This document shows, piece after piece, positions 14,733-30,549 of a DNA stretch of 32,000 nucleotides. Origin of the DNA: Pyrodictium occultum (GTDB lineage: Archaea; Thermoproteota; Thermoprotei_A; Sulfolobales; Pyrodictiaceae); assembly GCF_001462395.1 (NCBI RefSeq), contig NZ_LNTB01000001.1, positions 1,440,001-1,472,000 on the forward strand, read 5' to 3'. The notes below the pieces were generated by a model that saw only the letters and a program-made list of their open reading frames with translations, searched no databases and was not told the DNA's origin. Numbering within the stretch: the first letter of the stretch is position 1; every line of letters begins with the position of its first letter. The translations under genes and the position numbers were made by a program.

Positions 14733-16769
14733 TTAGGCATCAATCCCCGGCATCCGATACGGTATTTTGACTACTTCAGCTCCAAGGGCTTTTGCCAGCA
14801 GCTCCGTATAGTCTAGTAGCTTTAGACTCCTGGTACTCTTTGTATCATACACTATTGCCTTCACCTTTAGCCTCCTAAGCTCCTGAGAGACTCTAATTAT
14901 GTCGCTTTCGATGCTGTTCGTTAGCGGAACGTTAGCCCTTCCATCAGTTATTATATGGAGCACTAGATGCGCGTTAGGCCTCTTCAGTAGGAACCCTTTG
15001 GCCTGCCTACTAGCTTCAAGCAATGCTGCAGGCAGGGGAGTAGAACCTCCTATAGTGACCTGGTTTAGAGCCTCCATGAGCTTCTTCCAGTTACGCGTAG
15101 GCTTCACAAGGGTTTGCGCATTCCTTCCCTGAAACGCTATAAGGCCTACCCATGTGCGCTCGACGTAGCTCCTACGCGTCACTCCCTCAGCTATAGATTT
15201 GGCTAGGACGAGCCTTCTCTCAGCATACATGCTGCCACTGGCATCTAGCAGAATCATGTGCAGTACCTCAGGCTCCTCACGGTACACACGGACATGTATG
15301 TCGTGGACCGATGGCCTCCTGGCTCTACGCCTTAGGGCAGCACGGAGGGTAGCATAATAGTCTACCTGGTAGCCTTCCCCGAGCCTCTCGGGCTCCCGGA
15401 GGAAGGGTATAGAGTCTACATGCCTTCCCCAGCCATAGAAGCTTACCCGGTAGCGTTGCCAGCGTACCCTTCCTCTAGGCCCTGTAGGAGCTATCGCGGC
15501 ATGCTCCGGTAGATAGTAAATGCTTCTGGGGGGTTCATGGAACCAGGGATCTGCCCTAACGTCTCCAAGCCTGGCGAGAGGCGTGGCGCCGGACCCTGCA
15601 CCGCTACCAATAGAGCCCGTGGTTGGCTTGCCACTGTAGTCTTCTCCGCCATCCTCTCTGCCTCCCTGCACCCTCTCGCCGCCTTTGCTTCCGTTATTCA
15701 TGCTTCTGTTGTTGATTAGGGGATTTTTCCGCCCATTTTCTGGCCTATTTTTTTGCCTACCTGTATCCTGTTGCCCATCCCGGCCTAGATTCTGCAGAAG
15801 GGTTTGTAGCTTTTTCATCTTCTCCTCTGGGCTCTCAAAGGGCTGTGAACGCAGCCTATGCGGCAGCGCTAGCTCCATAGCCTTCTTTACATCCTCGATG
15901 CTTACAGTGGTCCGGCCATCGAGCGCTGCCAGAGCTTTAGCTGTCCGTGCAGTAACTATGTCTGCTCTATGCGTCCTTATTCCGAGCTTAACCGTCGTTT
16001 CTGTAATGAGGCGCAGTAGGCTTCTCGGTATCTCTACTCTGGGGAATAGCTCCCTAGCACGCCTAATCCTCTGACGTAGCTCTGCCTCCTGCTTCTCGTA
16101 CCGCTTCATGAAGCCTATAGGGTCTCGGCGAAACTCCTCAACTCTCTCGACTATCAGTGCCCTCTCCTCTGGGTCCTGTGAGGCATTAACATCAACATAG
16201 AGGCCAAAGCGGTCGAGAAGCTGAGGTCTAAGCTCGCCCTCCTCCGGGTTCATGCTGCCGACCAGTATGAAGCGTGCGGGGTGGCGGATCGAGAAGCCCT
16301 CCCTCTCCACAACATTCCAGCCAGTAGCAGCAGCGTCGAGTATGAGATCTGCTATGTGGTCGTCAAGTAGGTTGACTTCATCTATGTAGAGTATGTTACG
16401 GTTTGCCTCCGCCAGGAGCCCTGGCTTAAACACAACCTCTCCTCTCTTCAGTGCAGCATCGACATCTATGCTCCCCACGAGCCTATCAACGCTAATGTTG
16501 AGGGGCAGGTCTATAACCCTCATGGGCCTCCACTCGACTTCAAACCTCTCGCCTCTCAGCCACATCTTGTAGTGCTTGTCGCACATTTCCCTGGGGTTGA
16601 AGGGGTTACAGTTGAAGGGGCAGCCCTTAATCACCGGTATCTCTGACAGCACTTGTGCGAGGCTTCTCACAAGCGTGGTCTTCCCAGTACCCTTATCACC
16701 TACCAGCAGCACTCCCCCTACCTCAGGGTCTATGACTGCAGCCAGGAGGGCGAGCTTGGCTTTCTCCAT
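14733..16769 (-). CDS. chelatase ATPase subunit: ChlI-type AAA+ module fused to a low-complexity linker and a ChlD-type vWA domain
   Basis: Walker A 'GDKGTGKTT' and Walker B 'ILYIDEVNLLDDH' are present, followed by a G/N/R-rich linker and a MIDAS-type 'ILLDASGSM' vWA domain. The conserved ChlI N-terminal motif 'LPFTAIVG' is encoded in frame upstream of ATG 16769. The true start is therefore probably upstream, possibly CTG 16829 (see findings). Confidence 0.85.
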   Translation of the reverse strand: MEKAKLALLAAVIDPEVGGVLLVGDKGTGKTTLVRSLAQVLSEIPVIKGCPFNCNPFNPREMCDKHYKMWLRGERFEVEWRPMRVIDLPLNISVDRLVGSIDVDAALKRGEVVFKPGLLAEANRNILYIDEVNLLDDHIADLILDAAATGWNVVEREGFSIRHPARFILVGSMNPEEGELRPQLLDRFGLYVDVNASQDPEERALIVERVEEFRRDPIGFMKRYEKQEAELRQRIRRARELFPRVEIPRSLLRLITETTVKLGIRTHRADIVTARTAKALAALDGRTTVSIEDVKKAMELALPHRLRSQPFESPEEKMKKLQTLLQNLGRDGQQDTGRQKNRPENGRKNPLINNRSMNNGSKGGERVQGGREDGGEDYSGKPTTGSIGSGAGSGATPLARLGDVRADPWFHEPPRSIYYLPEHAAIAPTGPRGRVRWQRYRVSFYGWGRHVDSIPFLREPERLGEGYQVDYYATLRAALRRRARRPSVHDIHVRVYREEPEVLHMILLDASGSMYAERRLVLAKSIAEGVTRRSYVERTWVGLIAFQGRNAQTLVKPTRNWKKLMEALNQVTIGGSTPLPAALLEASRQAKGFLLKRPNAHLVLHIITDGRANVPLTNSIESDIIRVSQELRRLKVKAIVYDTKSTRSLKLLDYTELLAKALGAEVVKIPYRMPGIDA

Positions 16770-16825
16770 GCCTACTATTGCTGTGAAGGGCAGGTATAAC
16801 CTCCTCTCGCGCTCCTCCGGGCTGT

Positions 16826-29900: not shown

Positions 29901-30549
29901 CTGGAAAGATGAGGCAGACTTAGCTGAGGCCTACATGGAATCAATGAGCTACGCGTATGGTGAAGGCATATACTCTCAAAAGGCGAGGCAACTATTCGAA
30001 GACCTGCTAAAGAGGGTCGACATGGTTACACAAGTCAGAGACTCACAAGACTATGAGATTACGGATCTAGACCACTACTACGAGTTCTTCGGCGGCTTAG
30101 CGAAGTCCGTTGAGCAGCTAAGAGGGAAGAAGCCAGAGATGCTGATAGCCGACACAACCGGGGAGATGGTGAAGGTCGAAGACGTTAGAGAGTCGATAAC
30201 AAGGGGGACAATAACGAGAACTTTAAACCCGAAGTGGATAGAAGCTATGCTGAAACACGGGTTCCACGGAGCCCAGAAGATAGCTGATAGAGTAGAGTAT
30301 CTCCTTGGCCTAGCTGCGACTACCGGGGCGGTCGAGAACTGGGTCTGGGACAAGGTTGCTGAGCGCTTTGTGCTCGATGAAAACCTCTTCGAGAGGATAA
30401 AGAGCAGCAACCCATATGCAGCAAAGAAGATCCTAGAGAGGCTTCTTGAGGCAAGCGAAAGAGGTTACTGGAAGGCGGACAGGAAGGTGCTTAAAAAGAT
30501 AAAAGAGAGGTATATGGAGCTTGACGCGATGCTTGAGGAGGAAGCTTAG
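26974..30549 (+). CDS. cobN: full-length CobN/ChlH-family chelatase large subunit (second, lower-GC paralog)
   Basis: 1191 aa. It carries '[40 protein letters not shown]' and '[13 protein letters not shown]' and is collinear with the split pair. The start could be GTG 26974, GTG 26977 or TTG 26983. Confidence 0.9.
   Translation: [1191 protein letters not shown]

Follow-up and report, generated by a model that had tools for sequence, protein, structure and literature searches.

What does a CobN-type chelatase do in a hyperthermophilic archaeon, and how is it related to the transporter genes beside it? The question is raised by a 32-kb stretch of the Pyrodictium occultum genome (contig NZ_LNTB01000001.1, positions 1,440,001 to 1,472,000), below called the window. 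It encodes two CobN-family proteins, CobN1 and CobN2, a ChlI/ChlD fusion (ChlID) and, next to them, a four-gene module of an anchored beta-propeller, a 514-amino-acid (aa) membrane protein, a fused double ATP-binding cassette (ABC) ATPase and a CbiQ-like T component of the energy-coupling factor (ECF) type. In the paper on the HmuS structure the role of the archaeal CobN/ChlH homologues is described as unclear, and those archaea as being without complete hmu operons, aerobic chlorophyll or cobalamin pathways (PMC12583661). Tentatively, we read the cluster as a unit of cobamide (vitamin B12) metabolism, in which an ECF-type importer of cobalt would be coupled to an ATP-driven class I chelatase formed by CobN and ChlID.

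The analysis is based on a listing and translation of the open reading frames (ORFs) of the window, and on Pfam, NCBIfam and Rfam scans of it. All eight ORFs described in a first-pass annotation, made earlier from the sequence alone, are present at the coordinates and on the strands given there, and the domains that it had assigned were recovered by hidden Markov model searches of each protein (Pfam, NCBIfam). The features of the cluster are the following.

14733-16769, minus strand: ChlI/ChlD fusion, 678 aa, with Mg_chelatase, AAA_lid_2 and VWA matches.
16826-18403, minus strand: C-terminal piece of CobN1, 525 aa, CobN-Mg_chel profile positions 676-1089.
18400-20847, minus strand: N-terminal piece of CobN1, CobN-Mg_chel profile positions 2-662, probable start at ATG 20808 (802 aa).
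20845-20890, no strand: perfect palindrome of 46 bp, two divergent TATA boxes around GGTGCACC.
20867-21320, plus strand: tandem duplication, 2 x 227 bp, copies 100% identical.
21149-22822, plus strand: anchored propeller, 557 aa, weak PQQ_2 match (E 8e-12), N-terminal transmembrane (TM) helix.
22825-24369, plus strand: 514-aa protein of an unnamed family, no Pfam or NCBIfam match.
24344-25702, plus strand: fused A1A2 ABC ATPase, 452 aa, two ABC_tran domains.
25674-26537, plus strand: CbiQ/EcfT-type T component, Pfam CbiQ 27.8 bits (cut-off 25).
26923-26983, plus strand: cobN2 promoter with a TATTTATA box, GGTGCACC and GGTGCACT.
26974-30549, plus strand: CobN2, 1191 aa, unsplit, full CobN-Mg_chel match.

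The two gene sets are read outward from the palindrome, which had been located near 20.85 kb and is indeed perfect. On the plus strand the ORF coordinates give the 2-nt gap, the overlaps of 26 and 29 nt and the 436-bp spacer before cobN2 as first annotated; in the spacer we found no convincing ORF, terminator or sigma-70-type promoter match. The 4-nt overlaps claimed for the minus strand hold for the two pieces of CobN1, joined by TTGA, but not for the C-terminal piece and chlID, which are separated by a gap of 56 nt. Among the ORFs of the window no tetrapyrrole gene, CbiM or CbiN was matched in Pfam or NCBIfam, the absence of CbiM and CbiN having been noticed before, and the Rfam scan of the window gave 0 matches, cobalamin riboswitch included.

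To follow the cluster in other genomes, loci were collected by a family-alignment search of representative genomes and metagenomes and by exact-protein look-ups of profile-search matches, covering about 19 lineages (loci are numbered L001 and so on). The genome-contig scan gave distant relatives only (22-29% identity), and the Pyrodictium loci came through the exact-protein look-ups. The conserved neighbourhood on which the first-pass annotation had let its idea depend is found: the four-gene module is kept together from Pyrodictiaceae to bacteria, at 22-63% identity in Pyrodictiaceae, Thermoproteaceae, Thermofilaceae, Firmicutes, Planctomycetota and Hydrogenedentota. Propeller, homologue of the 514-aa protein, double ATPase and T component occur in the same or a permuted order in the window, L028, L010, L011, L001, L003, L005, L006, L007, L008, L017, L022, L023, L024, L025 and L026. 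Reduced forms are seen in L019 (membrane protein and ATPase), L020 (membrane protein and propellers), L021 (TonB-dependent receptor, TonB and membrane protein) and L027. The propeller is displaced in L003 because the gene of an IS605-type TnpB (OrfB/Cas12f-like, 5018-5887) lies between the T and propeller genes.

A CobN gene lies within 10 kb of the module in 10 of the about 19 lineages, mostly with ChlID or ChlD/ChlI. It is divergent from the module, as in the window, in L028, L010 and L011, immediately downstream on the same strand in L005, L006 and L017, immediately upstream in L023, and on both sides in L007 and L024; in four of these loci (L005, L006, L017, L023) it is apparently co-operonic with the module. 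The module-adjacent CobNs of nine of the ten lineages form one orthologous group, 36-62% identical to CobN1 of the window and 33-35% to CobN2. The group includes the proteins of the bacterial loci L017 and L024, and the CobN of L023 stands apart with 30-35% identity to all others.

CobN1 is a true CobN in two pieces, which together span positions 2-662 and 676-1089 of the 1090 positions of the CobN-Mg_chel profile. The protein is split at the same point in L010, L011, L028 and the bacterial L017. Pieces of about 790 and 510 aa are found in the Pyrodictiaceae, in the metagenomic contig L011 and in the bacterium Ca. Oleimmundimicrobium, and the protein is whole in L005, L006 and L024. The split recurs in Archaea and in a bacterium; the two-piece enzyme is therefore real and inherited, and a sequencing error is not the cause.

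The connection to B12 comes from the relatives. Cobalamin riboswitches (RF00174, 99-107 bits) are located directly upstream, on the same strand, of the family operons in L020, L021 and L023; archaea would be expected, in general, not to have this riboswitch. The operon of L023 reads CobN, membrane protein, ATPase, CbiQ, propeller and TonB-dependent receptor, that of L021 TonB-dependent receptor, TonB and membrane protein, and that of L020 small propeller, membrane protein and propeller, with no ATPase. TonB-B12 is the best-scoring family for both receptors (L021, L023), with scores under its cut-off. In L022 the genes for cbiET, a precorrin methylase, cbiG and a second methylase immediately precede the module on its strand, and cbiD is close by. 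This is the position that cbiMNQO takes in classical cbi operons. In L024 the module is flanked by two CobN/ChlD/ChlI sets and accompanied by CbiZ and an ABC-2 exporter, and in L001 CbiP and the corrinoid adenosyltransferase CobO are 4 kb away. The absence of a tetrapyrrole context, as first annotated, holds for the window and not for all relatives, some of which carry cbi genes, CbiZ, CbiP or CobO. The riboswitches, cbi genes, CbiZ and BtuB-like receptors of these loci independently support the link to a corrinoid "or its metal" in the earlier idea of an uptake-plus-(de)chelation module. L022, presumably an archaeal metagenomic contig, also has a NifH-like and two NifD/K-like (Oxidored_nitro) genes between cbiD and cbiET-cbiG (690-4337), which could encode a tetrapyrrole-reducing, nitrogenase-like enzyme. 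A word search with the CbiG of L022 gave three near-identical hits.

The least familiar part of the module is the 514-aa protein. Its relatives in the word index number only nine, and the named ones are from Pyrodictium, with 63-44% identity. A family profile searched against 1.84 billion representatives found 306 clusters (50% identity) at E<=1e-3 and 180 at E<=1e-10, spread over Thermoprotei, Euryarchaeota, Firmicutes, Planctomycetota, Hydrogenedentota and others. The members are about 500-700 aa long, and all that bear a name are called "hypothetical protein". According to the AlphaFold2 model of the full protein (predicted local distance difference test score, pLDDT, 83), an N-terminal TM helix is followed by two beta-sandwich ectodomains and seven C-terminal helices, in agreement with the extracytoplasmic part and multi-TM domain first annotated. 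Modelled alone, the C-terminal domain has again 7 helices (pLDDT 88, predicted template modelling score 0.85). A Foldseek search of the full model against the PDB gave generic immunoglobulin-like (Ig-like) matches only.

An alignment of 14 members with identities down to 22% places almost every invariant residue in the membrane domain, while the ectodomains drift. The membrane-domain invariants are LGPFDW, W411, W429, T432, D463-x-Y-x-D467 and YRLYYAxWY. The invariant Asp374, Asp463, Asp467 and Thr432 sit in the membrane core of the model, where they could ligate a cation. CbiM and CbiN were not matched in any of the 14 members. From its context the 514-aa protein is presumed to be the substrate-capture (S-like) subunit, because its homologue is the only membrane protein that is always beside the T/A pair, the module holding no other membrane partner for the pair, and because members of the family are also found, as known S components are, at loci with no module of their own (L020, L021).

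The T and A subunits are CbiQ/CbiO-like. In the ATPase both nucleotide-binding domains are intact, each with Walker A, signature and Walker B. The T component is divergent: it passes the Pfam CbiQ cut-off only narrowly (27.8 against 25), scores 42 bits against a cut-off of 112 for TIGR02454 and gave no sequence match in the PDB. The coupling-helix Arg of T subunits is normally essential. The relatives of the T component keep both coupling-helix motifs, RF(L/I)P and ESRG(F/Y); in the Pyrodictiaceae the second has become EY(S/A)(S/T)P (EYSSP in the window), with the loss of one signature Arg. All T members share a family-specific block, SQALFY...PRT...TGG.Y.Y.EG..YG..QSLR.

The fourth member, the propeller, is built of an N-terminal TM helix, a Thr/Val-rich stalk and PQQ_2-like blades, and its orthologues adjoin the 514-aa family in most loci. 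The anchored PQQ-like propeller first annotated is correct as to the domain, but not as to the 629-aa ORF (20933-22822): this long, TTG-initiated frame is an artefact of the tandem duplication. The two identical copies (20867-21093 and 21094-21320) each hold a TATA box, GGTGCACC and the first 57 propeller codons, and repeat half of the palindromic promoter. The repeat length of 227 bp is not divisible by three, and copy 1 therefore encodes no more than a truncated, out-of-frame ORF of 76 aa. The true start of the propeller is ATG 21149, giving a TM-anchored protein of 557 aa, in agreement with orthologue lengths of 549-564 aa. The duplication could be a recent, real event or an assembly artefact.

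The promoters probably tie the two gene sets together. The palindrome consists of 23+23 nt, with the opposed TATA boxes AATATAAA and TTTATATT around a central GGTGCACC, and a second GGTGCACC follows the plus-strand TATA box at 20887-20894. In the cobN2 promoter the TATTTATA box is followed by GGTGCACC at 26954 and by the half-site GGTGCACT at 26976, over the start codon. GGTGCACC occurs five times in the window against 0.43 expected, no shuffle reached five, and it is present at all three promoters. Relatives from Pyrodictium share the motif: L028 has a single GGTGCACC in 21 kb, inside its 98-bp divergent region, and L010 also has one in its divergent region. Because all three promoters carry the GGTGCACC palindrome, one regulator probably switches the importer and chelatase units together. 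A near-copy, GTGCACTA, lies just past cobN2 at 30619-30627.

For the chelatase, the question is whether the subunits are intact and in which direction they would work. We located the catalytic Glu positions by alignment to the Synechocystis ChlH mutant entries 6yt0, 6ytn (E660) and 6ytj (E625). The motifs THGxxEF and NxxExxxAKRR are found in both large subunits. The N-terminal piece of CobN1 has THGYLEF and NPMEGVMAKRR, with E577 and E611 as equivalents of ChlH E625 and E660, and in CobN2 these are matched by E554 and E588. The two pieces of CobN1 score 647 + 523 bits against the NF004646 cut-off of 1468. CobN2, first annotated as a second full-length cobN paralog, does cover positions 2-1088 of 1090 in CobN-Mg_chel. 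It scores best as ChlH/BchH and not as CobN, its closest PDB match is Synechocystis ChlH, and it passes the cut-off of the BchH equivalog TIGR02025 (970 against 829 bits). Bacteriochlorophyll synthesis is implausible in this organism, and an automatic annotation of CobN2 as "magnesium chelatase subunit H" would be an annotation trap in a hyperthermophilic archaeon.

ChlID is the sole I/D-type gene in the window, and no separate ChlI gene was found there. The fusion unites the functions of the AAA+ small subunit and of the medium subunit with its von Willebrand factor A (vWA) domain and metal ion-dependent adhesion site (MIDAS), as in TIGR02442 ("putative cobaltochelatase"), its best NCBIfam match (586 bits, below the cut-off of 779). 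It has a Walker A motif (GDKGTGKT), a Gly/Arg/Asn-rich linker and a vWA domain with the MIDAS motif DASGS. No signal peptide or TM segment is predicted in CobN1, CobN2 or ChlID, and any 60-aa stretch of the two CobNs contains at most four Met. The preserved ChlH Glu pair, Walker A and MIDAS and the absence of signal peptides argue for a cytoplasmic, ATP-driven chelatase that would work in the forward direction. A periplasmic de-chelatase of the HmuS type, an option raised in the first-pass annotation, was rejected on the cytoplasmic location, the lack of a Met-rich insertion and of an export signal, and the intact AAA+ motor.

Two further ideas about ChlID were tried and discarded. Its only canonical -1 slippery heptamer, A_AAA_AAT (codons 339-341, 15745-15755), is located at the AAA+/linker boundary, and a slip would lead immediately to a TAG and so to a ChlI-sized product of 341 aa; the heptamer is not conserved in L005, L007 and L010, and one is expected by chance. 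A weak bpMoxR match (E 0.003) brought up a ternary MoxR-vWA-propeller system, with which the clearly ChlI-type AAA+ domain and the extracytoplasmic propeller disagree.

Apart from the window, L007 is the one locus where a CobN2 (there a relative with 49% identity) adjoins the module, and L010 and L028 have no cobN2 at the corresponding position. The G+C content is 0.49-0.50 over the cobN2 stretch (27001-30000) against 0.55-0.58 in the rest of the cluster; it is 0.60-0.67 upstream of the cluster and 0.73 at 31-32 kb. The lower G+C and the absence at the same position in L010 and L028 suggest that cobN2 is a later arrival.

In the scheme that we tentatively prefer, substrate would be captured outside the cell by the surface-anchored beta-propeller and by the 514-aa subunit, which would replace the S component, and the CbiQ-like T subunit and the fused A1A2 ATPase would drive import. 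The most likely cargo would be cobalt, taken up as an ion or as a small complex. Imported cobalt would pass to the cytoplasmic chelatase, where the two-piece CobN1 (and the ChlH-like CobN2) would bind a corrin-type macrocycle and the single ChlI/ChlD fusion, as AAA+/vWA motor, would drive insertion of the metal. The sequences show the gene content, its conservation, the bacterial link to B12 riboswitches, the intact catalytic motifs and the shared operator; that the 514-aa protein takes part in transport, which substrate is carried and in which direction the chelatase works are what we infer. The placement of the module in the cbi operon of L022 supports import of cobalt. A cobalt importer feeding CobN and ChlID would also follow the logic of Rodionov et al. 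(PMC545781), who predicted cobalt transporters from clustering with cobaltochelatase and from B12-element regulons, transporter types being interchangeable.

Several observations weigh against cobalt import and, in part, for another cargo. A Foldseek search of the C-terminal domain against the PDB gave nothing at E<0.001, with no S component, CbiM/NikM, CbrT or BtuM in the top 50; Pfam at E<=5 gave only Trep_Strep (E=0.32) in one of the 14 members, and the family profile found nothing among PDB sequences. The usual ligands of Co and Ni are His, Cys and Met. The membrane core has no invariant residue of these three kinds, and its many invariant Trp and Tyr would suit an organic ligand. A simple importer of ions does not usually come with a large propeller and Ig-like domains, and RF00174 was not found in six of nine bacterial loci (Rfam). 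These points can be set beside a close rival, somewhat less probable, in which the module imports a corrinoid or other (metallo)tetrapyrrole. The propeller would be a BtuG-like surface trap, the 514-aa protein would act as a carrier in the manner of BtuM or CbrT, and in the cytoplasm CobN and ChlID would re-metalate the imported macrocycle or exchange or remove its metal. Besides the aromatic-rich core, this reading is favoured by L021, which with its riboswitch, BtuB-like receptor, TonB and family member, and no other inner-membrane transporter, resembles a corrinoid uptake operon, and by L020, which without ATPase resembles solitary S components such as BtuM (PMC6072759). CbiZ (L024) and CbiP and CobO (near L001) are salvage enzymes, CobN-like BtuS and HmuS sit in uptake loci, and for a surface lipoprotein that captures B12 there is a precedent in Bacteroides (PMC6143338). 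Furthermore, Desulfurococcales use B12, but in 2009 none of four had the biosynthesis pathway (PMC2667541); if this is true of P. occultum, a cobalt-inserting CobN would have no home-made substrate. Literature searches on Pyrodictiaceae and B12 found nothing specific. On the other hand, a corrinoid that is already metalated leaves no clear job for a cobalt-type, ATP-driven chelatase, the module of L022 is inside a de novo cbi operon, the hallmarks of HmuS are absent (no Met-rich insertion, no export signal), and neither fold nor sequence shows similarity to CbrT, BtuM or any S component. Somewhat more speculative is the proposal that the 514-aa family is a new class of substrate-capture proteins, which in Archaea and Bacteria alike would recruit ECF T/A subunits or work alone behind BtuB-like receptors. 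With the help of the propeller a corrinoid or cobalt chelate would be imported, and the orphan archaeal CobN/ChlH homologues, with one ChlID motor, would re-metalate the salvaged macrocycle or exchange its metal; if true, this would be a cobamide salvage route with an undescribed metalation step.

It is unlikely that the metal is another one, such as nickel or iron, imported by a Nik-like ECF transporter with extracytoplasmic parts and inserted by the CobNs into a non-corrin tetrapyrrole, e.g. sirohydrochlorin. A CobN homologue of Methanothermobacter is produced only when nickel is limiting (PMC12350162), recent papers describe the archaeal CobN/ChlH/ChlD homologues as being without a known role (PMC12583661 for CobN/ChlH), CobN2 scores best as ChlH/BchH, and ArsR-type regulators (L007, L021) and FeoAB or ZnuABC (L023, L026) are found in the neighbourhoods. 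However, cobalamin, rather than Ni or Fe, is what the riboswitches of three loci respond to, B12 is indicated by the neighbouring cbi, CbiZ, CbiP and CobO genes, and NikR, Fur and urease or hydrogenase maturation genes are not adjacent. We give even less weight to the possibility that chelatase and membrane module are mere neighbours, the propeller, 514-aa protein and T/A pair being an exporter, a surface-assembly machine or a sensor. Nine of the about 19 lineages do have the module without a CobN within reach, the T subunit of the Pyrodictiaceae has lost one signature Arg, and the 514-aa protein is without the S-component fold. Against this, the pairing of CobN and module recurs in both domains of life, in different gene orders and in apparent single operons, the importer and chelatase promoters share an operator, and the riboswitch control argues for a B12-related nutrient function.

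The cluster has no exact counterpart among the systems with which it can be compared. With CbiMNQO and NikMNQO (including the NikK/NikL variants) the module shares a CbiQ-like, if divergent, T component, CbiO-type ATPases, a dedicated module beside its membrane partner, the clustering with cobalt chelatase and cbi genes, and the B12-riboswitch control in bacteria. It differs in lacking CbiM and CbiN, in its fused ATPases, in the anchored propeller as an obligatory neighbour, and in a partner that combines two Ig-like ectodomains with a 7-helix core of unmatched fold. The two ABC ATPase domains (A, A') of group-I ECF transporters are present in the window. The six-helix fold of their S components is not seen in the predicted 7-helix domain, and group-I transporters have no extracytoplasmic binding protein, whereas propeller and Ig-like ectodomains are constant companions here. 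The system thus resembles a group-I ECF transporter coupled to a class I chelatase, with departures in the S fold, the extracytoplasmic parts and the Arg of the T subunit. Like ECF-CbrT and BtuM, the family belongs, in some of its bacterial loci, to a B12 regulon and has carriers with an ECF module (the window) or alone by a BtuB-like receptor (L021, L020); it is far larger, has ectodomains and is linked to CobN, and no similarity to CbrT or BtuM was detected.

On the chelatase side, the full CobN-Mg_chel profile, the ChlH Glu pair and the AAA+/vWA fusion that replaces two subunits are shared with CobNST and ChlHID of the TIGR02442 type. In contrast to these class I chelatases, CobN1 is in two pieces, there is a single motor gene for two large subunits, pathway genes are absent from the neighbourhood, and the scores are below the curated equivalog cut-offs except for CobN2 (BchH). 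HmuS and BtuS are likewise CobN-family proteins in uptake loci (PMC12583661, PMC6460266). They are assigned to the periplasm, B. fragilis BtuS1/2 being predicted to be exported and membrane-anchored (PMC6460266), and a Met-rich insertion and haem ligation by Met/His are features of HmuS, whereas the CobNs of the window are cytoplasmic, insertion-free and accompanied by ChlID. No AAA+ partner was found described for HmuS or BtuS, unlike for the CobNs of the window, and no hmuY/R/T/U/V-like genes are present in the window. The fold of BtuG we take to be a beta-propeller. BtuG is a surface-exposed capture protein feeding a B12 transporter (PMC6143338); the propeller of the window is TM-anchored and PQQ_2-like, and the likeness is one of description. 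That the combination is not a described system, as the first-pass annotation had thought, agrees with our literature searches, which found no description of this importer-chelatase system.

Outside the cluster the window encodes ThiD/ThiN, an ABC-2 pair, a GT4 glycosyltransferase, a nucleotidyl transferase, a thioesterase, a second anchored propeller and an M17 peptidase, of which two features may belong to the same system.

6605-8529, minus strand: ABC-2 permease and DrrA-like ATPase, a possible outlying part.
10640-12640, minus strand: second TM-anchored propeller protein, 666 aa, Beta_propel (PF09826).

The ABC-2 pair resembles those located between CobN and ChlD/ChlI in L017 and L024 (41-44% identity for the ATPase, 26-31% for the permease), and may be an outlying exporter of the system. 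The second propeller has a Thr-rich stalk, and the fifth exact GGTGCACC of the window (12631-12638) overlaps its start codon; it may be part of the same regulon. Directly downstream of cobN2, at the edge of a very G+C-rich stretch, lies a 257-aa ORF with no family match (30692-31465, minus strand). In the Thermoproteaceae a membrane protein of about 320 aa with a weak "Gate" domain (nucleoside recognition/FeoB-type) is found beside the propeller or chlID (L001 7241-8188, L007 4734-5738). TauE/SafE permeases recur in L007 and L008, and L007 has an ArsR-type regulator.

For the archaeal CobN/ChlH homologues the cluster provides a conserved partner in the importer, and the riboswitches of the bacterial loci point to cobamide metabolism as their pathway; with this, a role for CobN-type chelatases in archaea becomes testable for the first time. 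The shared GGTGCACC operator is a handle on an archaeal regulon. The 514-aa protein and its sizeable, unnamed family are strong candidates for a cobalt or B12 transporter that has so far been missing, also in those B12-dependent hyperthermophiles that have no known uptake system.

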